Shown here in pieces: positions 15,571 through 28,320 of a DNA stretch of 64,000 nucleotides (within the stretch, counting starts at the first letter, position 1; every line of letters starts with the position of its first letter). The position numbers and the translations under genes were made by a program. The notes under the pieces are model-generated. The model searched no databases and was not told the origin of the DNA. It saw nothing but the letters and a program-made list of their open reading frames with translations. The stretch is from Nanohaloarchaea archaeon B1-Br10_U2g1 (GTDB lineage Archaea; Nanohalarchaeota; Nanosalinia; Nanosalinales; Nanosalinaceae): assembly GCA_001563875.1 (NCBI GenBank), contig LKMN01000002.1, forward strand, positions 11,324 to 75,323, in the 5' to 3' direction.

Positions 15571-15915
15571 ATGAGGTTCGAATCCGAAGTTGTCGCAGAA
15601 AACATACTTCCCGCCATAAGAAAGATACTGGCAGTCTCTCTGAGCACAGACTACGGTCTCACCCAGAGAGATATCTCTCAGAAACTCGCAGTTACACAAC
15701 CCGCCGTAAGCCAGTATCTAAAAGGAAAAAGGGCAGACAAAAATGTGGTAGAAAAACTTGAGGATGACCCTCAAATCAATATACTTATAGAAGACGCAGT
15801 AGCCAAAGCCGCAAAAGATGAGGACTTCTCAGACGAGATAAGACAGATAATACAGACCTCAAGAGACAAAGGGTTGTTCAAGGAAAAGTTTAGAGACACC
15901 AAACGCTGCCTCTAA
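15571..15915 (+). CDS. Archaeal HTH transcriptional regulator (COG2522 / ThiR N-domain-like)
   Basis: 'EVVAENILPAIRKILAVSL...GLTQRDISQKLAVTQPAVSQYLKGKR'. Confidence 0.88.
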   Translation: MRFESEVVAENILPAIRKILAVSLSTDYGLTQRDISQKLAVTQPAVSQYLKGKRADKNVVEKLEDDPQINILIEDAVAKAAKDEDFSDEIRQIIQTSRDKGLFKEKFRDTKRCL

Positions 15916-18050
15916 TCCCTAAAACCGTCCCAAGAGAACTCTTCAGCCTCATCTTCATTCTTCAGAACAGCGTTTACACGGCTCTCAATACCTTCCAAAG
16001 AGTTTACGGAGATATCTGAATCGACAACGCTTTCAAGATCAAAGTCATACTCCTCACTGTAGGCGAAAAATCCTACAGCACCTATACCACCTACTCCAAT
16101 TAGGACCAGCAATACCATCAACATTCTTGTACGCTGGGAGGAAATATGATCTGATCTGACCTCTTCATAGGTCTGTTCTGCCTCTGAGAAGTCAGAGCTT
16201 ATACCTGAAAGTGCTTCATCAGCCTTATAGTACTCACCATCTTCAATAGCTCTTTCAGCTTCATCCATTCTCTCTTCAAAGGATGCCATAGCTGCCTCTG
16301 CTTCTTCAGATCTCTCTTCAGAGAGGCCGTCCTCTTCAAGCTCTGTAATATTAGATCTCAGAGCGTCAAGACTTTGATCGTGACCTGAGAACTGTTGATC
16401 AATCTCCTGTTTCTGGTCCTCGTTCGCAGTTACCAAAAGCTCCGACTCAGCACTGTATGAAGGACCTTCAGAGGATATCTCTAAATCATGAGAACCTAAA
16501 TCTTCATCCTCAGTTTCAATCTCCCAAGTCAAGGACACCACACTACCATTATCAAGATGTGAAACAGTTTCGGACTGGTTGAATATATCCTCAACATGAC
16601 CTTCAATCTCCAGATCTTCTATTATGAACATTCCTGTGTTTTCAACACTTAAGTCAAAATCTCCTGTACTTCCCGCTTCTACCTCAAACTGTTCAGGAGT
16701 ATCTATCTCTACTTCAGGACCATCATCAGGATAGTACTCAAAGTCTAGATTCTGTGGTGTGCTCCACTGACCTAGATTGTCTTGCGCTCTAACATATAGT
16801 GTGTGTTCACCATCATCAAGTTCTGAAGGATCTATATCTAGACTTATTGTTCCGTCAGACTCGCTTGACCTCGTTCCGTCACCTGCACCATCAAAATCAA
16901 AGTAGTACTCTACCTGATCTACTCCGGAAGTATCATCCAAAGCCTCAAACTCTACCTCAAACTCATCATTGAAAATATAGTGTCCTGATACCGTATCAAG
17001 ATCCAAGACTGTTGGAGGACTACCGTCAAAAGTATATTCTTCGGAATCACTTTCCTCGCAGTGACCGGCCTCATCACAGACCTCTACGTAGATATCTACG
17101 GTAGAATCACCGTAATCCGACATATCAACATCACAGTAGAACTCTACTTCATCTTCACCATCTAAGCTTTCGAAACCGTCGCTATCAATCTCATCATCTG
17201 AATCATCTTTACATATAACTTCTTTTTCAGATACCTCATCACCTGTCTCATACACAGTTATCTCAAGTTCTTCATTGTAGTCGTCTTCAAACTCGTCTTC
17301 AGTGTATAAGCCTCCACTTGGATCAAAGTCGACATCTTCATCCCCTTCGAAACTGGTTGTTACTGTGAAACTCCATTCGTCATCCCATTCCTCATCCTCC
17401 CAGTTACCTCTATCGTTTCCCAAAGTGTCGTTAACCCACCATTCAACATAGTAGGTTTCTGTATCATTAAGGTCGGTATCGAGTTCCGGATTATCTGTCT
17501 CTCCAAAGGTATAGTCAACCAGGTCTTCTCTATCACTGTCCTCATAGACCGTTAAGTTAGTGTAATGGACTCCAGAACGGTCATCCTCAAACTCCGCTTC
17601 GACTGTCGGAGAATCATCCGATATGTATTCACCGTTGCTAGGACTTTTAGAATCAATTACGGGCCCTGTTTTGTCAAGGGTAACCTCTATTGTTTGATTC
17701 CTGTCTGTATTGTTGATATTGGTTGCGTTAAGATAATATTCTCCGGAAGATTCAGTATCTTCCCATGTAGGTGTGACGTAGCCATCCTCATCAATCTGTT
17801 CAACACTTATCTCCTCCCAAGTTTCATTGTCTTCACTGAAAGTCACGTTTATCTCTTCGTTCTCGTCACCCTCTTCTTCAATTACTCCTGCTGGATCTGA
17901 AATATTGAAATCAGGAGTATCAGGAATGAATTCTCCGTCTTCAGGCTCTATCCACTCAAGTTCATCTTCTGCAGATCCTAGTCCTAGTAATAGCGTGGTG
18001 ATTATGAGAAATGTTGTAAGTCGTAATGCTTTACGGTTGAGAATGGTCAA
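15912..18050 (-). CDS. Large acidic cell-surface protein (Ig-like/CARDB-like domains, helical stalk, C-terminal TM)
   Basis: Signal peptide, 'DKTGPVI' and 'DGSPPTV' Ig-like boundaries, 'HTLYVRAQDNLGQWS', many N-x-S/T sequons, C-terminal TM and cytoplasmic tail. Confidence 0.8.
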   Translation of the reverse strand: MTILNRKALRLTTFLIITTLLLGLGSAEDELEWIEPEDGEFIPDTPDFNISDPAGVIEEEGDENEEINVTFSEDNETWEEISVEQIDEDGYVTPTWEDTESSGEYYLNATNINNTDRNQTIEVTLDKTGPVIDSKSPSNGEYISDDSPTVEAEFEDDRSGVHYTNLTVYEDSDREDLVDYTFGETDNPELDTDLNDTETYYVEWWVNDTLGNDRGNWEDEEWDDEWSFTVTTSFEGDEDVDFDPSGGLYTEDEFEDDYNEELEITVYETGDEVSEKEVICKDDSDDEIDSDGFESLDGEDEVEFYCDVDMSDYGDSTVDIYVEVCDEAGHCEESDSEEYTFDGSPPTVLDLDTVSGHYIFNDEFEVEFEALDDTSGVDQVEYYFDFDGAGDGTRSSESDGTISLDIDPSELDDGEHTLYVRAQDNLGQWSTPQNLDFEYYPDDGPEVEIDTPEQFEVEAGSTGDFDLSVENTGMFIIEDLEIEGHVEDIFNQSETVSHLDNGSVVSLTWEIETEDEDLGSHDLEISSEGPSYSAESELLVTANEDQKQEIDQQFSGHDQSLDALRSNITELEEDGLSEERSEEAEAAMASFEERMDEAERAIEDGEYYKADEALSGISSDFSEAEQTYEEVRSDHISSQRTRMLMVLLVLIGVGGIGAVGFFAYSEEYDFDLESVVDSDISVNSLEGIESRVNAVLKNEDEAEEFSWDGFRD

Positions 18051-18129
18051 TCACTATTTATTCGATGGGATTCGAATGTTTAAGTAAATTTTTCGGTGAG
18101 GACAGGCTTTTTTCTTCCCTGTTTCAGGT

Positions 18130-18732
18130 TCACCGGTTTTGGCTTTGAAGGAACTGTTCCAGGTCGTTCAGAGATGTAGTGTATCCTCCTTCAGACGATT
18201 TTGCAGTGACTATTCCATGTATATCGTCTTCTTGATCTACTAGAGGTCCGCCACTGTTTCCTGGCCGAATCTCTGCATCTGTGAAAACCATGTCTGTAAA
18301 TACTTTGTTCTCTTGTTGAAGCTCTAAGGTTACTCCTGTTTCTAGTACTTTTCCTTCTGTTATATCGAGTTCGGACGCGTATGGATAACCTATAGCTGCT
18401 ACTTCTTGGTTTACCGTTGTTTCATCAGCAAGCTCCAACGGTTGTAACTGCTCAGGTATATCTGCCTCCAGCAAGGCTAGATCGGTAGAGCTTTCTCCCG
18501 CTAGGTTGTCGGCCTCAACAGTCTCTCCTGTACTGAAAGCTACCTCTAAATCTTCTGAGTCCTCAACAACATGGTAAGAAGTTATGATATAGTCTTCATA
18601 GATTACTCCGGATCCGAACTCGTGGTCTCCTTGGTTGACCAGAACTATTGAGTCTGCGGCGTCTTCAAAGCTTGCTTCCGCGGCGACCGACATTAAAAAA
18701 ATCGGTATCAGAACCAGTAGAGCCTTCTTCAT
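18130..18732 (-). CDS. Secreted trypsin-like (S1C/HtrA-type) serine protease without PDZ
   Basis: Signal peptide; triad 'TSYHVV', 'TDLALL', 'PGNSGGPL'. Confidence 0.9.
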   Translation of the reverse strand: MKKALLVLIPIFLMSVAAEASFEDAADSIVLVNQGDHEFGSGVIYEDYIITSYHVVEDSEDLEVAFSTGETVEADNLAGESSTDLALLEADIPEQLQPLELADETTVNQEVAAIGYPYASELDITEGKVLETGVTLELQQENKVFTDMVFTDAEIRPGNSGGPLVDQEDDIHGIVTAKSSEGGYTTSLNDLEQFLQSQNR

Positions 18733-20209: not shown

Positions 20210-20869
20210 TTACTGGTGTTTGAAGTACTTATTGAGCTGTTCTTTTCTGTCCGAAGGACCTACCAGAAGAAGGTTGTCCCCTACATCAAGACCTACGTTC
20301 ATATCCTTGGTTATAGTCTTACCTCCCTGAAGTATAGATACGATCTTGAAACGTTCAGGAAAAGAGTCTTCTCCTGTTATCTCGTCGACAGTTTTACCTC
20401 TAAGATCAGAGTTCTTCCTTACAGAAGCCTTTACAACCTCGTTTTCCTCCGAAAGGTTAGCAAGCTTCACAAGGTAGGGATGCTCTATACTGCTCATAAA
20501 CTCTGAAAGCATCAGACCTGTATGCGCTATAGTTTCGGCCTCTATCAGTTCAAAGGCCTCCATATACTCGTCGTTGACAACCTTGGATATAACTTTAGGA
20601 ACGCCGTACTTCTTCGCTAAGGAACAGACAACCATGTTCTCGTTATCATTGTTTAAAACAGATATAAGCGCGTCGGCCTCGGTTACTCCCGCATCCTCTA
20701 AAGCGGAAAGGGTTGCAGGATCTTTGTTTATCACTGTTGCTCCTGAAGACGCGTACAATCTTTCACATTTATCCTGATCCTCATCTATAACCACTACGTC
20801 ATGCCTGTCCTCAAGCTGTTTGACAAGCCTTCTTCCAAGAGTGGTTATCCCTGATACGATTATGTACAT
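20210..20869 (-). CDS. trkA: TrkA family K+ uptake regulatory subunit (RCK N+C)
   Basis: Degenerate Rossmann fold 'SGITTLG', 'DVVVIDED', 'LEDAGV'; adjacent to trkH. Confidence 0.85.
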   Translation of the reverse strand: MYIIVSGITTLGRRLVKQLEDRHDVVVIDEDQDKCERLYASSGATVINKDPATLSALEDAGVTEADALISVLNNDNENMVVCSLAKKYGVPKVISKVVNDEYMEAFELIEAETIAHTGLMLSEFMSSIEHPYLVKLANLSEENEVVKASVRKNSDLRGKTVDEITGEDSFPERFKIVSILQGGKTITKDMNVGLDVGDNLLLVGPSDRKEQLNKYFKHQ

Positions 20870-20871
20870 CT

Positions 20872-22320
20872 CTATTCAGAGTCTTTGAACAGCTCGCTAT
20901 TAAATATTGCCAGAAGCGGTATCATCTCAAGTCTTCCCGCAATCATGACTATAATCCATGTAAACTTGGTGACAGCGGAGAGATCAACCATTTCACTACC
21001 CTCCATGTAGACCGGTCCCATGTTCCCTGCCGCGGAAACCGTCCCTGACAACGCCGCCATAAGATTTGTGCCCTCGGCGTAAAGCACGATAAGCGTTCCT
21101 AAGAAGATTATGGATACCCAGCTGAAGAACAGTACTGAGATCGTTCTTATCATAGAGCTGTCCAGTATCTCTCCGTCTATCTTCACCTCGTTAATAGCCG
21201 ACTTAGGAAGCTTGTATGATCTCAAATGTGTTCTGAGAAGCTCTATCATAGCTTTCAAACGGAAAATCTTGAAACCTCCTGAAGTCGATCCAAGAGAGCC
21301 TCCTACAAACATTACGCCTATGAATGCTGCCTGTAAGCCAACTGTAAGCGATGTAAGTGTTATAGTTGAGTGTCCTGTTGAGGAAACCACTGCTGCAGAC
21401 GTGAAAACTCCATCAAAAACCGCTCTCTCCGGTGTAAAGCCCTGACGAATCAGCTCAAAACAGGTAAGCACAGACATAACTAGGAAAACCTTGAAGTAGA
21501 GCTTGAACTCTGCGCTTCTAAGGAATGATCCGTAATCCGTTCTAAGGAACCTGTAAAGAAGTACGAAGTTAACACCTCCCAGAAACATTAAGAGAATTGT
21601 AGCAGCTTCTATAGGAGTAGAGTTGAATCCTGCTATGCTTTCACCCATTGTAGAAAACCCTCCTGTCGAAATTCCGGAGAAAGAATGTAGAACAGAATCG
21701 AATGCCGGCATACCAAGCAGCACGTAGATACCTGCAAACAAGGCAGTTATGAAACCGTAAACTCTCCATAAGTCAGCTATGGATTTTGTCAGAGAAGGTC
21801 TTATAGAACCTGCATCTGTTTTATGGGACTCGGCAGAGTAAAGACTTCTTGTTGCAGCACCAGACTCTCTAATAACCACTATGAAGAATGTTAGTATCCC
21901 TAAACCTCCTATCCACTGCATGAAAGATCTCCAGAAAAGTATTGAACTTGGTAAGGTCTCTGGTGCTAAAACTATAGATATTCCTGTAGTTGTGAGACCG
22001 GCTGTAGCCTCAAAGACCGCATCTATTATATTTAAGTGTGTTAGAAATGGTATTGCTCCGAATACAACCGCAAGCACCCATCCAAGAACCGTGGCAAACA
22101 TCGCCTCGGATATATCCGGATTTCTAGAGCTTTCACCCTGTTTACCAGACATATAGATTGAATATCCCAGCACTAAAGAGGAGACGGAGGCAACTATAAA
22201 TCCCGAGATCTGAGCCAGACTTTCTCCATAGTAAACACCGACTATTATTGGCAGAGCTACTAAAACAGCGAAAATCTGGAGGAAAGCACCTACAATCCTC
22301 AGAATTACCGAGCTCCTCAT
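20872..22320 (-). CDS. trkH: TrkH family K+ uptake membrane protein
   Basis: 'FEATAGLTTTG', 'QWIGGLG', 'STGGFS', 'GSTSGGFK', 'GNMGP', 'GRLE'. Confidence 0.95.
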   Translation of the reverse strand: MRSSVILRIVGAFLQIFAVLVALPIIVGVYYGESLAQISGFIVASVSSLVLGYSIYMSGKQGESSRNPDISEAMFATVLGWVLAVVFGAIPFLTHLNIIDAVFEATAGLTTTGISIVLAPETLPSSILFWRSFMQWIGGLGILTFFIVVIRESGAATRSLYSAESHKTDAGSIRPSLTKSIADLWRVYGFITALFAGIYVLLGMPAFDSVLHSFSGISTGGFSTMGESIAGFNSTPIEAATILLMFLGGVNFVLLYRFLRTDYGSFLRSAEFKLYFKVFLVMSVLTCFELIRQGFTPERAVFDGVFTSAAVVSSTGHSTITLTSLTVGLQAAFIGVMFVGGSLGSTSGGFKIFRLKAMIELLRTHLRSYKLPKSAINEVKIDGEILDSSMIRTISVLFFSWVSIIFLGTLIVLYAEGTNLMAALSGTVSAAGNMGPVYMEGSEMVDLSAVTKFTWIIVMIAGRLEMIPLLAIFNSELFKDSE

Positions 22321-22372: not shown

Positions 22373-22436
22373 TTTATAAAGTTTGTATACGCATCTCCGA
22401 ACTGCTCGGAACGAAAACTGACTGAGCAAAGGTGAA
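22373..22436 (+). promoter_or_regulatory. TATA box, K-turn-like hairpin leader and SD of the rps6e operon
   Basis: TTTATAAA 22373-80; TGCTCGG-AAC-GA-AAACT-GA-CTGAGCA 22403-28; GGTGA 22431-35. Confidence 0.55.
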
Positions 22437-22443
22437 ACTAATA

Positions 22444-22815
22444 ATGAAGATTACAGTAGGAGATACAGACGGTAAAACACACCAAATCGAACTAGAAGAA
22501 AGCTCAAAAGTAGTTGGAAAGAAGATTGGAGACAGCTTTGAAGGAGGAATAGTAGGCTTAGACGGCTACAAACTTGAGATAACCGGTGGAAGCGACAAAC
22601 AAGGGTTCCCTATGAGAGAAAGTATCGAAGGAACAGGTAGAAGAAGTATACTACTCAAAAAAGGATCCGGAATAGACGAGGAAGAAAACGTTAGAAAGAG
22701 AAAAACCGTTAGAGGAAACACAGTCTCCGACGAAATAGAACAGCTAAACACCAAAGTTGTAGAAGAAGGAAATGAATCTGTAGAAGATCTTCTATCAGAA
22801 GAGGAAGAGGAGTAA
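22444..22815 (+). CDS. rps6e: 30S ribosomal protein S6e
   Basis: 'LEITGGSDKQGFPMR', 'RKRKTVRGN', 'QLNTK'; ATG 22444 after GGTGA. Confidence 0.96.
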   Translation: MKITVGDTDGKTHQIELEESSKVVGKKIGDSFEGGIVGLDGYKLEITGGSDKQGFPMRESIEGTGRRSILLKKGSGIDEEENVRKRKTVRGNTVSDEIEQLNTKVVEEGNESVEDLLSEEEEE

Positions 22816-22853: not shown

Positions 22854-24041
22854 ATGACTGAGATACCTGAGGCCAACATCGGACTAGTAGGACACGTCGA
22901 CCACGGAAAAACAACTTTAACGAACGCATTATCCGGTAAATGGACCGACGAACACTCTGAAGAACTGAAAAGAGGCATCACCATAAGACTAGGTTACGCC
23001 GATATAACCTATTACAGAGATAGTGACGGAAACCTCAACGTAAAAGAAGAAGGTGACGCCGAGAGAACTATTTCTCTGGTAGACGCTCCAGGACACGAAA
23101 CACTGATGGCCAACGTGCTTTCAGGAGCAGCAATAATGGACGGAGCAATACTTCTAGTCGCTGCAGATGAAGAGTGTCCTCAACCTCAGACAAGAGAGCA
23201 TTTAGCGGCTCTAAATATTGCAGGAGTTGAGAATATAGTAGTTGTACAGAACAAGATCGATAAAGTTTCTAAAGAAGAAGCTAAAGACAATTACAGACAG
23301 ATAAAAGAGTTCTTGAAAGGTTCTGTTGCCGAAGACGCTCCTATAGTACCTATATCAGCACAACAGGAGATTAACATCGATGCTCTTCTGGAAGCTGTAG
23401 ATGAAGAGATATCTACACCAGACAGAGATAGAGATGCGGACCCGAAGATGTTGTTAGCGCGTTCATTCGATATAAACAAGCCCGGAACTAAGACAGAAGA
23501 TCTGAACGGCGGCGTAATCGGCGGAAGCCTTGTTAAAGGAGAGTTAGAAGTAGGAGATAAAATTGAGGTAAGGCCCGGAGTACGTATCGGCGGAAAATGG
23601 AAGCCTGTTAAGACAAAGGTAAGAAGTATACTACAAGGAGGAAAACCAGTAGAGAAAGGAAGTCCAGGGGGATTACTGGCTGTAGAGACAGAACTGGATC
23701 CTGCTCTGGCTAAGTCCGATGGATTATCTGGAAACGTTTTGGGCGTTGAAGACAAGCTTCCTGATACTTTAGATGAGATAGAGGTTGAGGTAGAGCTTAT
23801 GGAGAGACTTGTTGGTTCAGAAGACGAGAAGGAGATTGAGAATATCAAGAAGAAAGAACCTTTGATGCTTAACGTTGGAACAGGTAAGTCCGCAGGGATA
23901 GTAACAGGTCTAGGTAAAACCGTTGAACTCAACCTTAAAGCACCCGTCTGTGCCGAGGAAGGAGACCGAATCGCGATTTCGAGGCAGATAGGCTCTAGAT
24001 GGAGGCTTATTGGCCACGGCAAAATTGTGTCTACACAGTAG
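22854..24041 (+). CDS. eif2g: Translation initiation factor aIF2 gamma
   Basis: GHVDHGKT, 'RGITIRLGYA', DAPGH, QPQTREH, NKID, 'RSFDINKPG', 'WRLIGHG'. Confidence 0.97.
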   Translation: MTEIPEANIGLVGHVDHGKTTLTNALSGKWTDEHSEELKRGITIRLGYADITYYRDSDGNLNVKEEGDAERTISLVDAPGHETLMANVLSGAAIMDGAILLVAADEECPQPQTREHLAALNIAGVENIVVVQNKIDKVSKEEAKDNYRQIKEFLKGSVAEDAPIVPISAQQEINIDALLEAVDEEISTPDRDRDADPKMLLARSFDINKPGTKTEDLNGGVIGGSLVKGELEVGDKIEVRPGVRIGGKWKPVKTKVRSILQGGKPVEKGSPGGLLAVETELDPALAKSDGLSGNVLGVEDKLPDTLDEIEVEVELMERLVGSEDEKEIENIKKKEPLMLNVGTGKSAGIVTGLGKTVELNLKAPVCAEEGDRIAISRQIGSRWRLIGHGKIVSTQ

Positions 24042-24072
24042 GCTACCGGGTTTTTTATACTGTAGAACGTGA

Positions 24073-25638
24073 ATGATGGTTATGGTAGACTTTCTAACTC
24101 CTTTAATTGATTTTATAAGCAGAGATCAAGCCACGGTACAAATACTAGTTACTCTTTCAATTTTGGTTCTAGGCCATCTACTCACGAAATTTGTTAAGAC
24201 GGTCGGTAGAAGGGTCTGGGTAGCAAGAGAAGGCATCACAAAAAAGGAGTTAAGGAGAAGACAGGAAGGACTGAAATATGTAGGGTATATCATAGATGCA
24301 TCCGCCATATCAGTAGCTCTACTTTACCTAAATACAGGCATAACAGGTTCAGTAGTTGAGCAGGCAGCCGAGTTTGCACCAAACCTGCTTTCAGCGATGC
24401 TTATCGCAGTCCTTGGAATACTAACGATACAGATAGTTACACGTGCTGGAGAGAACTTCCTAAGAACGATGGGAGTTCAAAACTACTTCAGAGAGTTAGG
24501 AGTCTCCTACAACGGAATTAGAATTATAACAGGTTTCTTCAAGGCTTTCCTATACCTACTGCTTCTCCAAGTGGCGCTAGACCAGCTTGGGGTAGGAGAC
24601 AGCTTTGTAAGAGAACTTATTACAGCCTCATCATGGGCAGCAGCGTTCCTAGTAGCAGGACTACTCATATACGGTTTTAAAGATCTTATAGCAAACTTCG
24701 CAGCAGGTATCTACCTAAAGAGTTCAAGACTAGTCAAACCTGGAGAGAAAGTGTATCTTGAGGAAGATTCTGGTGAGATACGTAGCGTAGATCTTTTCAG
24801 CACCGAAATAGGTACCGGAGAAGGATACAATCTTGTGACACAGAACAAGAACATTATGAATGCAGATCTCAAGTTCAAGAGAACCAAAGGAGATCTAAAC
24901 ACCTTAGAAGATATCAAGAGATACTTCACAGCCCAAGATCCTTCTTACTGCGGTCCTGCATCCGCAGAGATGGCGTTAAACATCTTCGGATACCGTTTCA
25001 ACCAGCAGGAGATAGGAGATATGGCCGGTACAGAGAAAGGGGTTGGAACAATGCCGGACGAATTAATAGAGGTTGTAGAGAACTTGACTGACGAAGAAGT
25101 TAGAGGTGCTTACGTAGAGTACGACAAGATAACGGATCTATCAGACGAGTTCAAGACCTGGTTTAACGACGGAGCTCTAATAATACCTAACTTTGCGAAG
25201 CCGGTACTTTTCCCTCAGGCAGATACAGCGCATTACAGCCTATGTGTGGCCGTAGAAGGAGATGAGCTACTGGTAGTTGATCCTAGCGCCAACACTGTTT
25301 CAGGCGGGGTATACTACGCGGACAGCTCGGAGATGCTGGAAGCTATGGGAGAGTTCGAAGGCCGTACCAGAGGATATATCGTACTGGCTCCAGAGGATAC
25401 AACCGCGTACTGGAGAATCAAAGAGGACCTTATTTACTCGGACGAGAACCTGTACGACCATATAAATAAGAACATGGAGCTTCAGCTCCGTAGAATCCTG
25501 AGACAGGGCAGAATACTGAAGAATGTTCTACCGGAAGATCTTCAGGACTACATAGAGAAGTGGGAGAAGGATGAAAAAGTTGGAAGGGTATGGAAGCCTG
25601 ACGGAGGGGAAGAAGATGAAGACACTGATACTAGGTAA
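24073..25638 (+). CDS. MscS-channel / phytochelatin-synthase(C39)-like papain-fold fusion protein
   Basis: ~5 TMs and an MscS beta-domain ('FAAGIYL...VKPGEKV...GEIRSVDLFSTEI'), then 'FTAQDPSYCGPAS', 'AHYSL', 'LVVDPS', 'LEAM...GRTRGYIVL' (Cys293/His387/Asp403). Confidence 0.8.
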   Translation: MMVMVDFLTPLIDFISRDQATVQILVTLSILVLGHLLTKFVKTVGRRVWVAREGITKKELRRRQEGLKYVGYIIDASAISVALLYLNTGITGSVVEQAAEFAPNLLSAMLIAVLGILTIQIVTRAGENFLRTMGVQNYFRELGVSYNGIRIITGFFKAFLYLLLLQVALDQLGVGDSFVRELITASSWAAAFLVAGLLIYGFKDLIANFAAGIYLKSSRLVKPGEKVYLEEDSGEIRSVDLFSTEIGTGEGYNLVTQNKNIMNADLKFKRTKGDLNTLEDIKRYFTAQDPSYCGPASAEMALNIFGYRFNQQEIGDMAGTEKGVGTMPDELIEVVENLTDEEVRGAYVEYDKITDLSDEFKTWFNDGALIIPNFAKPVLFPQADTAHYSLCVAVEGDELLVVDPSANTVSGGVYYADSSEMLEAMGEFEGRTRGYIVLAPEDTTAYWRIKEDLIYSDENLYDHINKNMELQLRRILRQGRILKNVLPEDLQDYIEKWEKDEKVGRVWKPDGGEEDEDTDTR

Positions 25639-26425
25639 AGACTTCGAGACAGAGATGTTTGAGGAACACTTTGAGGAGGTAGAGGAAAAATCTCTCGCAG
25701 ACACCATGATAACTATGAACGGTGGCAGCGAGGTCTTGATAAACGGAGAAGATATAGAGACCTGGGACGCTGTCTATATCCAGCCAGAGTCAAAGGCTGT
25801 ACAGTTCTCAAGAGTCTTGATGGAGACACTTTCTCTCAAAGAGATACACTGTAATCTGAATACCTCTGTATTCATACCTGTAAAAAAGCCTTACCTACTA
25901 CAGGTACTTTCAGAAAAAGAGGTTAAAACCCCTGTTCAGACAAGTATCTCGACAGAGAAAGGTCTCACCGAGATCGAAAAAGAGGTTGAGTTCCCGGTTG
26001 TAACTAAAAAATACAGGAATCTAGATCTTGAGGAGACAAAGATATTTGATAATTTTGAGAATCTTAAGAAGTTCTGTGAAAATACCGAACACGGAGAAAG
26101 CTTTGTAGTAATCCAAGAGTATTCCGAAGAAGATGTTTTCGATATACTGTATATAGACGGAGATATTATCTCTCTAAAGCTAGAGGATAATCCTTGGAGC
26201 TCCGAAGAAGTAGTAACCGGAAAGTACCACAGTCTTTCAGACAAGCAGAAAGAGGTTGTAAAAGATGCTGTCTCAGCTATAGGCCTTAAGATATGTAGTT
26301 TAAGATTAAACGGTACAGAGGTCATGGATGTTAAAAACGATCCTCAGCTCGAAAGATTCAGAGAAGAGAGCGGTAAAAACGTTTATGGAAGAGTTGCATC
26401 AATGTTAGAAGGTGATCAAGATTAA
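25616..26425 (+). CDS. Degenerate RimK-like ATP-grasp protein
   Basis: 'KKPYLLQVL...VKTP', 'FPVVTK', 'VIQEY' retained; Gly-loop, DxR, D and EVN motifs altered. GGAGG SD supports ATG 25616. Confidence 0.72.
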   Translation: MKTLILGKDFETEMFEEHFEEVEEKSLADTMITMNGGSEVLINGEDIETWDAVYIQPESKAVQFSRVLMETLSLKEIHCNLNTSVFIPVKKPYLLQVLSEKEVKTPVQTSISTEKGLTEIEKEVEFPVVTKKYRNLDLEETKIFDNFENLKKFCENTEHGESFVVIQEYSEEDVFDILYIDGDIISLKLEDNPWSSEEVVTGKYHSLSDKQKEVVKDAVSAIGLKICSLRLNGTEVMDVKNDPQLERFREESGKNVYGRVASMLEGDQD

Positions 26426-27296
26426 GTGTGCAGTAATATACGGAAGCAAGTCAGCACAACACCAGTACTTCATAGAGAAAGGTAAAGAGTACTTCGACAA
26501 AGTTCTCGGCGTTCCTCTAGAAGGTGTGAGAACGGTTTATGATGGAGATGGCGCTCATTTAATGTACAAGAACACCGATCTATGTGAGTTCGATGCCGTA
26601 TACCTAAGGCTTCTAGGAAACGACTTGATGTACGGCGAACATCTACCTGAAATACTGGATGAGAACAATGTATACACCCAGCTTGAATCGGAAGCTCTAG
26701 CAATAGCCTCTAACAAGTTCCATATGATGAAGGTCCTAGGAGAGTCAGGTCTGCCTGTCCCCGATTCAATCTACACTCTTTCAACAGAAGAAACCGAAAG
26801 AGCAGGAGAAACATTAGGATACCCCAACATAATCAAGATAATATCAGGTTATGGAGGGAAAGGAGTAATCAAAGCAAACTCTGAATCCGATATAGGACCC
26901 ATAACTGATGCTTTAACACTTTTCGAACAGGAAATCTGTGTACAGGAGTATATTGACAATCCTGGCGAAGACATACGTATAACGGTAGTAGGAGACGAAA
27001 CATTCGCATACAAAAGGGTTGGAGGAGAAGAAGAGTTCCGTTCAAATATATCTGCAGGAGGCAACAGAGAATCCTTTGAACCTTCTGAAGAAATGAAAGA
27101 ATCTGCCATAAACGCTGCAAGACTCTGCGGCCTGGACATCGCAGGAATAGACATAATTGAGGATGAGAAAACCGGCGAAATTTATCTTGGAGAGGTAAAC
27201 GCTTCGCCCGGCGTCGAAGGAACAGAAGAAGTTTTGGAAGTTGATATGGCCAAAAAGATAATGGCTTTTATCAAAAAGAAGGCCGCGGAGCGGTAA
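26412..27296 (+). CDS. RimK family ATP-grasp amino acid (glutamate) ligase
   Basis: 'ASNKF', 'GLPVP', 'IIKIISGYGGKGV', 'VQEYI', 'DIRITVVG', 'FRSNISAGG', 'AGIDII', 'EVNASPG'. Confidence 0.92.
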   Translation: MIKIKCAVIYGSKSAQHQYFIEKGKEYFDKVLGVPLEGVRTVYDGDGAHLMYKNTDLCEFDAVYLRLLGNDLMYGEHLPEILDENNVYTQLESEALAIASNKFHMMKVLGESGLPVPDSIYTLSTEETERAGETLGYPNIIKIISGYGGKGVIKANSESDIGPITDALTLFEQEICVQEYIDNPGEDIRITVVGDETFAYKRVGGEEEFRSNISAGGNRESFEPSEEMKESAINAARLCGLDIAGIDIIEDEKTGEIYLGEVNASPGVEGTEEVLEVDMAKKIMAFIKKKAAER

Positions 27297-28320
27297 ACTC
27301 CTCAAAGCTTTGAGCCAGTATCTCTTTAGCCTCAGTCATCTCCTCCTCTGAGAAAGCGTTCAAAGCCGGAACCCCTACATAATCTTCTACAGTATCTTTC
27401 CCAACGGTCGTATCAGTAATCGGTCCTGACATAAACGAGAGCTCGTAATCCAGATCAGTTAAAACCTTTTTTAGGCCGTATGCTCCCATAACATCTAAGC
27501 TTACACCACAAATACTGAATATTGAGTTCTTTACATCTAGATCTCTTAGAACTTCTTGGACATGGTAGTTACTGATCAGCCCTGCACCAAACTCTATAAC
27601 TATGAAGTCAAGATCTTCGTTCCAAGCATGGTTGATCAAGCCTTTAGCAGAGGATATAACTATCTCAGGATCATCTACAGTTGAAGGCAGTCCTGCATCA
27701 ACAAAATCCAGTGATATCTCTGAACCGGATTCAAACATGCTTACTCGGTCTCTTTCTCTTGCGGAACCAGTAAGTTTCAAGGAACCAACTTCATACTCCT
27801 CTGAAAGGTTTTCAATTATCTTCGTAGCCAGTGTTGTCTTTCCTGCATCCATCCTGGTCGAGACAACGCCCACCAGTCTTGGCTCTCCTTCAATCTCTTC
27901 AACTCTTTCAATACCATAATCTTTCATGTTCAAGATCTTTTCGTCCTGTGAGACGTATCCAAGAAACTCTGCCTCACATGGCTCTCCTAAATTCTTTGCA
28001 GCGCTTAAACAGTCTCCGAAAACGCCTCCCGAGCCTATGAAATCTATTCGATCGCCTTCACTGACTTCATCAGGCACTTCTCCAATATATCCTTTGACTC
28101 CTGCCCGGTTTCCAAACGTTCCAAGGACTATATCTCCCTCTTCAATCTCTACGAGCTCTCCTCCAGGGAGATCCAGTTCGTTGTAGTCGCCTTTTTTCTC
28201 TGTTATCTTTACTGCTACAACATCCCCTACCTGAGGTCTATGTCCGCTTTCAACTATCTCTGAACTATCTGTTATCTCTATCCTTTTCAGGCACGAGGCC
28301 TTGTAATCATGTCTAACCAT
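27271..28320 (-). CDS. DUF1611-family P-loop protein
   Basis: 'PQVGDVV', 'GNRAG', 'STRMDAGKTT', 'KLTG', 'DFVDAGLPST', 'SGPITD'. Confidence 0.75.
   Translation of the reverse strand: MVRHDYKASCLKRIEITDSSEIVESGHRPQVGDVVAVKITEKKGDYNELDLPGGELVEIEEGDIVLGTFGNRAGVKGYIGEVPDEVSEGDRIDFIGSGGVFGDCLSAAKNLGEPCEAEFLGYVSQDEKILNMKDYGIERVEEIEGEPRLVGVVSTRMDAGKTTLATKIIENLSEEYEVGSLKLTGSARERDRVSMFESGSEISLDFVDAGLPSTVDDPEIVISSAKGLINHAWNEDLDFIVIEFGAGLISNYHVQEVLRDLDVKNSIFSICGVSLDVMGAYGLKKVLTDLDYELSFMSGPITDTTVGKDTVEDYVGVPALNAFSEEEMTEAKEILAQSFEEFTAPRPSF

Follow-up and report, generated by a model that had tools for sequence, protein, structure and literature searches.

An MscS-type channel core with a predicted papain-fold peptidase in place of its cage domain, linked to two RimK-type ligase genes in Nanohaloarchaeota

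A stretch of 64,000 nucleotides from Nanohaloarchaea archaeon B1-Br10_U2g1 (contig LKMN01000002.1, positions 11,324 to 75,323; hereafter the window, to which all nucleotide positions refer) contains a gene that joins the core of an MscS-type mechanosensitive channel to a predicted papain-fold cysteine peptidase domain, which stands where canonical MscS has its alpha/beta cage domain. MscS-family channels serve as a classic model of how cells sense mechanical force, and a filtering and regulating effect on ion flow is ascribed to their cytoplasmic cage. The fusion gene (24073..25638, plus strand; 521 residues if read from ATG 24073) is present as a reading of the window from its letters alone (the sequence-only reading) had described it. 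Full-length relatives occur in 50 other genome loci and in 64 of the 70 genomes of the phylum, so the architecture is no chance pattern. Furthermore, the gene is linked to two genes for RimK-type ligases, and we tentatively propose that the three products may act together on alpha-glutamyl chains.

The N-terminal half belongs to the MscS family. Pfam searches revealed MS_channel_1st_1 (PF05552) at residues 95-137 (29.8 bits, cut-off 22) and MS_channel_2nd (PF00924) at residues 204-264 (21.8 bits, cut-off 20.2). A profile of 30 family members aligned residues 183-264 of the fusion protein to residues 94-175 of E. coli MscS in the PDB (E 1.2e-10), with the NLAAG, FRxGE and FSTT..G..PN motifs of the two in register, and MscS chains matched the structural model of the fusion in Foldseek at E about 1e-6 and 20-22% identity. 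The assignment of this half to MscS by the sequence-only reading was therefore correct. The MscS core (24613..24864, plus strand), recognised by profile, PF00924 and Foldseek, comprises the pore helix equivalent to transmembrane helix 3 (TM3; NFAAG motif, residues 208-212) and the beta-domain (residues 204-264). Residues N208, A210, Y214 and L215 are invariant across the fusion family, and FSTT..G..PN is conserved as well.

The C-terminal alpha/beta domain of MscS (PF21082) was not listed by Pfam in the fusion protein at E≤1. The genome also encodes a canonical MscS (10-846; on the minus strand, which corrects the earlier description), for which PF21088, PF00924 (80.6 bits) and PF21082 (43.8 bits) were found and which ends in GIDIPYP. 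The contrast drawn from the letters, i.e., an alpha/beta domain present in the canonical protein and missing from the fusion, is thus confirmed. These two proteins are the only PF00924 matches in the whole genome (709,831 bp, 96.75% complete). With the MscS family (PF00924; solved heptamers such as 2vv5, 2oau and 6rld) and its E. coli member, the fusion has in common the TM3 pore helix with NxAAG, the beta-domain and the cytoplasmic position of the C-terminal part. However, it has five predicted transmembrane helices instead of three, and the PF21082 cage domain and the C-terminal barrel are replaced by a peptidase domain of ~170 residues and a helical tail of ~65 residues.

The membrane region (24073..24681, plus strand) was delimited by hydropathy and by the AlphaFold2 (AF2) model, with predicted helices at about residues 21-41, 68-90, 102-125, 149-172 and 181-202. 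As the loop of residues 42-67 holds nine Lys/Arg, the N-terminus is predicted to lie outside, and the beta-domain and all following parts in the cytoplasm, as in MscS. This topology prediction agrees with the earlier placing of the enzyme domain on the cytoplasmic side. A conserved linker (RTKGDLNTLEDIKRYF; 24865..24927, plus strand) connects the two halves; its residues D274, T277, E279 and F285 are invariant in the alignments, and the AF2 model has a low predicted local distance difference test (pLDDT) score at residues 266-276.

The enzyme half is a predicted papain-fold cysteine peptidase domain of C39/PCS/Pei type (PCS, phytochelatin synthase; residues 286-442; 24928..25398, plus strand). 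Peptidase_C39_2 (PF13529) was found at residues 288-404 (29.4 bits, cut-off 24), and this is the single PF13529 match in the whole genome. The mean pLDDT of the AF2 models was 73.6 for the full protein and 72.3 for residues 270-521, the papain-like domain itself reaching 77-95 over residues ~290-449. For the peptidase domain as delimited here, the AF2 model gives values of 84-94. Four residues on the plus strand are predicted to be catalytic: Gln288 (24934..24936), which falls in a column where all members of the C39 set have Gln, as oxyanion-hole residue; Cys293 (24949..24951), at the N-terminus of helix 290-305, as nucleophile; His387 (25231..25233), at the start of a beta-strand, as general base; and Asp403 (25279..25281) as third member of the triad. 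In the AF2 models, His387 and Asp403 are placed on adjacent strands. All motifs given by the sequence-only reading were correctly located (AQDPSYCGPAS at residues 287-297 with Cys293 at nucleotide 24949, AHYS with His387 at 25231, VVDP with Asp403 at 25279, and LEAM..GRTRGYIVL). The proposed order, a TM3/beta-domain core followed by a papain fold instead of the alpha/beta cage, is the one recovered by Pfam, profiles, Foldseek, VIA-align and hhalign. Note that a profile of the whole protein matched only MscS chains in the PDB and no peptidase; the peptidase match appeared when the profile of the C-domain was used alone.

Structural comparison places this domain near several families at once. 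The top nine rows of the Foldseek search are the primitive phytochelatin synthase Alr0975 of Nostoc (E 1.2e-8, TM-score 0.64 normalised to the target, 19-21% identity), followed by PeiR, the PCAT1 peptidase domain (E 2.6e-6) and ComA (E 9.6e-6). VIA-align, with a comparison set of 48,161 representatives, gave its top score to PeiR (8z4h; Z 17.9, root mean square deviation (rmsd) 2.3 Å over 145 residues, 22% identity), ahead of the lyase 22oc (Z 16.4), Alr0975 (Z 15.7, rmsd 2.6 Å over 153 residues), PCAT1 (Z 15.6) and ComA (Z 15.4, rmsd 2.1 Å over 132 residues), the rmsd of the last two being 2.1-2.3 Å. PeiR, Alr0975, PCAT1 and ComA span no more than about 2.5 Z units; these small clan-CA families are not told apart by fold. 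For PeiR, a pseudomurein endoisopeptidase, the highest VIA-align score is not accompanied by a match at the sequence level (Pfam, PDB profile); moreover, PeiR is by its name a cell-wall isopeptidase, whereas the fusion domain is predicted to be cytoplasmic.

Sequence profiles favour C39. In hhalign, the C-domain matched six standalone C39 peptidases (small PF03412-positive proteins, found as weak non-fusion matches of an exhaustive search) with 99.65% probability and E 3.7e-25 over 151 columns, and Gln288/Cys293/His387/Asp403 fell in their invariant Gln8/Cys14/His97/Asp113 columns. The top named clusters of a protein-cluster atlas are all C39, a PCS cluster being at rank 24. By Pfam, Peptidase_C39 (PF03412) remained below the cut-off in the fusion (16.8 bits, cut-off 22), as did the Phytochelatin model (PF05023; 12.7 bits, cut-off 24.9, residues 282-308 only).

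The echo of phytochelatin synthase motifs emphasised by the sequence-only reading stands in part. Besides being the top Foldseek match, Alr0975 was the sole PDB entry to match a profile built from 49 C-domain sequences (E 0.0013), and the Gln/Cys, Asp, AM and RGY motifs of the two were in register. Alr0975 (2btw, 2bu3, 6th5) and the fusion domain are alike in the Gln-x5-Cys, Asp, AM and RG(Y/F) motifs, and the helical inserts that both have between Cys helix and sheet resemble each other. However, a PCS study (PMC3855540) describes Arg173, Lys206 and Tyr207 of the second-substrate cavity of NsPCS as strictly conserved in PCS; in the hidden Markov model alignment, Lys206 and Tyr207 align to a variable residue and a Gly of DPSxxxGGVYY in the fusion family, and Arg173 aligns beside the nearly invariant Lys376. 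The fusion domain also differs from Alr0975 in being membrane-tethered and in that the genome yielded no glutathione pathway. The suggested fold and profile comparison with both families thus gave matches to both, with the fold unspecific and the profiles on the side of C39. Because PF13529 passes its threshold, the PCS model fails, the hhalign match to C39 is far stronger and Lys206/Tyr207 are not conserved, the domain is, as judged from its sequence, a C39-type clan-CA peptidase with PCS-like traits and no PCS.

With PCAT1 (8vp3/7n87), ComA (3k8u/5xe8) and the standalone C39 peptidases the domain shares the papain fold and the equivalent Gln/Cys/His/Asp columns. PCAT1 and ComA resemble the fusion also in that a peptidase domain is joined to the cytoplasmic side of a membrane conduit, yet theirs is N-terminal to an ATP-binding cassette (ABC) exporter, whereas here it is C-terminal to a channel. 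Further differences from the C39 domains of ABC transporters are the sub-threshold PF03412 score, the extra helical insert and the tail. Pfam found no ABC exporter domain in the fusion, and the conserved partners matched by synteny across the 50 loci include neither an ABC exporter nor a conserved gene for a small precursor peptide; a gene for a double-glycine substrate is not present nearby.

The domain is followed by a conserved helical tail (residues 443-508; 25399..25596, plus strand), in which W447, R448, Y455, Y461, K466, E469, R477, G479, W497 and W507 are invariant. It is modelled with low confidence in the monomer. The protein ends in an acidic peptide (..DGGEEDEDTDTR; 25597..25635, plus strand), identified by alignment of the C-termini; in the fusion proteins of loci L004-L052, the last 7-10 residues form clade-specific acidic motifs (..DETSEDN, ..KLDEFTDTDE, ..GGLDEFIDDN), while most lineages without Cys/His end soon after ..RLWSPEE. 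The conservation of this C-terminal peptide suggests a role in partner recognition.

The fusion is a near-universal trait of the phylum. A scan with one genome per species gave the 50 loci mentioned above, and the C-domain of the fusion was found in 27 of the 28 high-quality Nanohaloarchaeota genomes (64/70 in total), essentially with one full-length copy each. A search with the whole protein returned 255 matches; among the 120 listed, the lengths are 424-533 residues, and those with an organism name are all from Nanohaloarchaea. Automatic annotation calls these relatives either "C39 family peptidase" or "mechanosensitive ion channel domain-containing protein". An exhaustive search of 1.84 billion representatives with residues 270-521 gave 72 matches at E≤0.001, most of them fusions of ~440-545 residues. 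The catalytic residues were surveyed in 49 sequences (48 loci and the window; L042 and L053 are incomplete and were left out): 35 of them, including that of the window, keep the full Gln-Cys-His-Asp set, and Asp403 is kept in all 49. Two standalone homologues of the C-domain (P0172 and P0175; 232-236 residues) keep Gln/Cys/His/Asp as well.

The most constant neighbours of the fusion gene are two ligase genes downstream of it. Wherever the downstream DNA is available (49 loci; L042 is truncated), the order is fusion, ORF284, RimK on one strand; this holds also for five loci (L036-L039 and L043) without a same-strand match for eIF2-gamma upstream. In the window, the fusion gene overlaps ORF284 (25616..26425, plus strand) by 23 nucleotides, and ORF284 overlaps the RimK gene (26412..27296, plus strand) by 14 nucleotides. 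The latter encodes a RimK-family alpha-L-glutamate ligase of the ATP-grasp type (TIGR00768, 155.8 bits, cut-off 143.4; PF08443, 123.9 bits), recognised also by its conserved position, and is the sole PF08443 match in the genome. ORF284 had no Pfam match of its own, but the profile of its family matched Pseudomonas RimK (7qyr) over the full length (E 1e-7) and, with E values of 1e-17 to 1e-26, the RimK genes next to it, which identifies it as a divergent RimK paralog. It was found in 65 of the 70 genomes, and its presence or absence agrees with that of the fusion in 69 of them; the five genomes without either gene have completeness values of 93, 61, 88, 86 and 75%. A complex prediction with the alignments of the C-domain and of ORF284 scored 0.00 (mark 0.32), which speaks neither for nor against an association.

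To our knowledge, the only RimK operon partner understood biochemically is a dedicated peptidase. By analogy, the fusion and the RimK pair may form a ligase-plus-peptidase module in which the channel-tethered peptidase acts together with the ligases on alpha-glutamyl chains; this is our preferred reading, although we hold it with less than even confidence. The fusion would assemble as a heptamer like other MscS proteins, and its seven peptidase domains and tails would form a cytoplasmic vestibule beneath the pore. The substrates of the peptidase and the RimK pair would be free poly-alpha-glutamate or Glu tails on a protein C-terminus, and the peptidase would hydrolyse or transfer such alpha-glutamyl chains. 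Being tethered, the peptidase could link the turnover of glutamyl peptides to membrane tension, or set glutamate free beside an efflux pore. Where Cys/His have been lost, the domain would still serve the vestibule as a structural or binding element. We infer that the fusion and the RimK pair are a functional analogue of the bacterial pair RimK (ligase) and RimB (glutamate-removing protease), tethered here to an osmotically gated channel. Indeed, according to the description of the Pseudomonas RimK-RimB(-RimA) system (PMC11957791), a RimK-family alpha-L-glutamate ligase is encoded there, too, beside a dedicated peptidase, and fusions of this peptidase to another component of the module exist. 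The two systems differ in that here the peptidase is part of a channel protein, two RimK paralogs are present and there is no homologue of the target, bacterial S6.

A bolder version of this proposal, to which we give only a slim chance, is a mechanosensitive "channel-enzyme": tension on the MscS core would control a ring of seven peptidase domains which trim RimK-made poly-alpha-glutamate, so that glutamate and its K+ counter-ions could be released at the efflux pore. Its targets would be free poly-alpha-glutamate or protein C-termini, e.g., the Glu-rich tail of ribosomal protein S6e or the acidic tail of the channel itself. If this is true, an osmotically silent polyanion would be made releasable, and the system would be an enzymatic osmotic relief valve and a core trait of salt-in DPANN archaea.

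Several observations weigh against the ligase-plus-peptidase module. RimB is an aspartic protease of the retropepsin-like kind which removes glutamates from a polyglutamylated protein, and not a papain-fold enzyme, so that the analogy can be functional only. Furthermore, the normal substrates of C39 enzymes are Gly-Gly leaders, and that of PCS is gamma-Glu-Cys-Gly. In 14 of the 49 surveyed sequences (about 29%), Cys and/or His have been lost, usually together with Gln, while the domain is kept. These losses, like the constant RimK-type neighbours and the spread of the gene through the phylum, had escaped the sequence-only reading. In a quick IQ-TREE tree of the 46 full-length rows (three partial rows were dropped), these losses need at least two changes, all within one clade of 24 rows; the gene of the window sits in a clade in which all sequences are intact. 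The RimK pair is kept in loci whose fusion has lost Cys/His; its function therefore does not strictly need peptidase catalysis. Finally, distant, non-acidic relatives (P0164, P0167-P0169, P0174 and P0178; 24-28% identity, 439-508 residues) keep the whole architecture of MscS core, papain-like domain and tail without Cys/His, which points to a non-catalytic common role. The scaffold appears to be older and wider than Nanohaloarchaeota, as one of these distant members, P0168, has a 68%-identical relative whose label gives a Woesearchaeota metagenome-assembled genome as its source. Two metagenome scans found no genomic loci of these distant relatives.

The losses of Cys/His and the distant relatives without these residues speak for a structural or regulatory reading, according to which the main task of the papain-like domain and the tail is to rebuild the vestibule, to tune gating through a bound ligand or partner, or both, catalysis being accessory or vestigial; MscS relatives with other appended C-terminal domains tune gating in that way. 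After the loss, conservation persists in the domain, in Asp403-Pro404 and in the tail; the last, with a mean pairwise identity of 0.59-0.67, is as conserved as the enzyme domain and is kept in the distant relatives as well. We nevertheless regard this reading, the main alternative, as rather unlikely, though not negligible. Where the triad is intact (35 sequences), conservation is highest in the papain domain (mean identity 0.62, compared with 0.59 for the tail, 0.54 for the beta-domain and 0.35 for the transmembrane region), whereas in the loss group its advantage is gone (0.52, compared with 0.50 for the transmembrane region). High conservation where the residues are present, and its drop after their loss, argues for selection on catalysis where they are present; that Gln, Cys and His are lost together while Asp stays is as expected of one functional unit. 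A less probable view is that the MscS-derived half no longer conducts and serves only to anchor a cysteine peptidase to the membrane's inner face and to oligomerise it. The gate residues Leu105 and Leu109 of E. coli MscS correspond to Gly196 and Tyr200 in the fusion (by our own reading of the ungapped alignment register). Conduction properties can therefore not be assumed, which counts against the channel part of our preferred reading, too; the low Pfam score of the beta-domain (21.8 bits, compared with 80.6 in the canonical MscS) and the presence of that separate MscS in the genome likewise speak for a mere anchor. However, the signature motifs of TM3b and the beta-domain, including the four invariant residues and FSTT..G..PN, are conserved, and MscS-family PDB entries of only 171-174 residues have been deposited with seven chains each, so that such a core is able to assemble even when the alpha/beta domain is missing.

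Readings that take the substrate from a known relative of the domain fare worse. As a PCS-type enzyme, it would be a gamma-glutamylcysteine dipeptidyl (trans)peptidase acting at the channel mouth on glutathione-like thiols, e.g., host-derived gamma-Glu-Cys compounds. This would fit the position of Alr0975 in Foldseek and among the PDB profile matches with its aligned motifs, and the RimK gene indeed weakly matches glutathione synthetase models (PF02955, 51 bits). We consider it very improbable, since the PCS model fails, Lys206/Tyr207 (strictly conserved in PCS according to PMC3855540) are unmatched, C39 relatives match far better, and the VIA-align scores of PCS, C39 and Pei are too close to tell them apart; moreover, no GCS2-type gamma-Glu-Cys ligase was found in the 96.75%-complete genome, and the neighbouring ligase is of the RimK-type alpha kind. 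Scarcely probable, finally, is a leader-peptide protease which cuts a double-glycine leader and lets the peptide exit via the MscS-like pore, in analogy to PCAT and ComA. C39 is the best family by sequence (PF13529, hhalign, atlas clusters), and the entry titles of PCAT1 and ComA describe a C39 domain fused to a membrane exporter. But the conserved syntenic partners are two RimK-type ligases and not a small-peptide gene or an ABC transporter (neither was among the matched genes), PF03412 is below its cut-off, and the passage of a peptide through an MscS-type pore is doubtful.

No description of an MscS-peptidase fusion was found in a full-text literature search (supplements, which might list the family, are outside its reach). 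Two retrieved sources mention a different MscS-linked novel gene in Afararchaeaceae (bioRxiv 10.1101/2023.07.03.547478) and an unrelated C39 locus (PMC6393860). The sequences themselves are public and auto-annotated; as far as we searched, an MscS-family protein with an enzyme as its cage domain, in a conserved module with RimK ligases, is apparently undescribed.

Nanohaloarchaeota are obligate symbionts living at saturating salt. The retention of the fusion in genomes of ~0.5-1.7 Mb and its lock to two RimK-type ligases make it likely to be important to their biology. The replacement of the cage domain by a peptidase predicted to be active offers a testable link between osmosensing and the turnover of peptides or protein tails, and the fusion is a natural experiment on the purpose of the MscS cage domain. 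If our preferred reading of a ligase-plus-peptidase module is correct, the fusion and the RimK pair would be a second, non-homologous example of the ligase-plus-eraser logic of bacterial RimK-RimB.

The real start of the fusion gene is probably ATG 24082, giving a protein of 518 residues, because a 100%-identical database protein (P0001) has this length and a TATA-box-like hexamer, TTTATA (24055..24060, plus strand), lies ~25 nucleotides 5' of this ATG. The hexamer is possibly the gene's own promoter, with a leaderless mRNA. In the spacer of 31 nucleotides 3' of the upstream gene (24042-24072), a run of six T precedes TTTATA; a terminator-like T-run, a TATA box or both may be present here, the TATA box giving a near-leaderless transcript from ATG 24082.

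Directly upstream, on the plus strand, are the genes for eIF2-gamma (22854..24041), which has the same strand as the fusion in 38 of the 50 loci, and ribosomal protein S6e (22432..22815), whose product ends in ..LLSEEEEE. Nearly all of the 36 S6e tails listed for the related loci (L045 is masked) are rich in Glu/Asp, with Glu or Asp as the last residue in most (e.g., ..ELLEEE, ..LLGEEEEE). Bacterial RimK extends the C-terminal Glu tail of S6, a protein unrelated to S6e. The S6e tail could, by analogy, be a RimK substrate, or it could merely reflect halophile acidity. The TrkA and TrkH potassium-uptake genes (20210..22320, minus strand) are divergent from S6e, eIF2-gamma and the fusion gene and lie upstream of them. 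They keep this position in most related loci, so K+ uptake and an MscS-type valve are neighbours across the phylum.

The gene following RimK in convergent orientation, ORF349 (27271..28320, minus strand; 22 of the 50 loci), encodes a protein of 349 residues with a P-loop (..SRMDAGKTT..), and every ORF349 locus with a readable fusion has intact Cys/His/Asp. No Pfam or NCBIfam family was above threshold for this protein; weak MobB-type P-loop matches were obtained, and the atlas gave leads, based on features only, to hypothetical and DUF1611-like clusters. Its membership in the module is uncertain.

The same module of fusion and RimK pair is carried by six loci titled "Candidatus Aenigmatarchaeota" (L036-L039, L043 and L049), five of which form a clade beside rows labelled Nanohalarchaeota; the record labels of the six disagree with their gene content. 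Elsewhere in the window (15912-18732, minus strand), a protein of 712 residues with a bacterial Ig-like domain (Big_7) adjoins a trypsin-like serine peptidase of 200 residues, possibly as a surface or host-interaction pair unrelated to the fusion.

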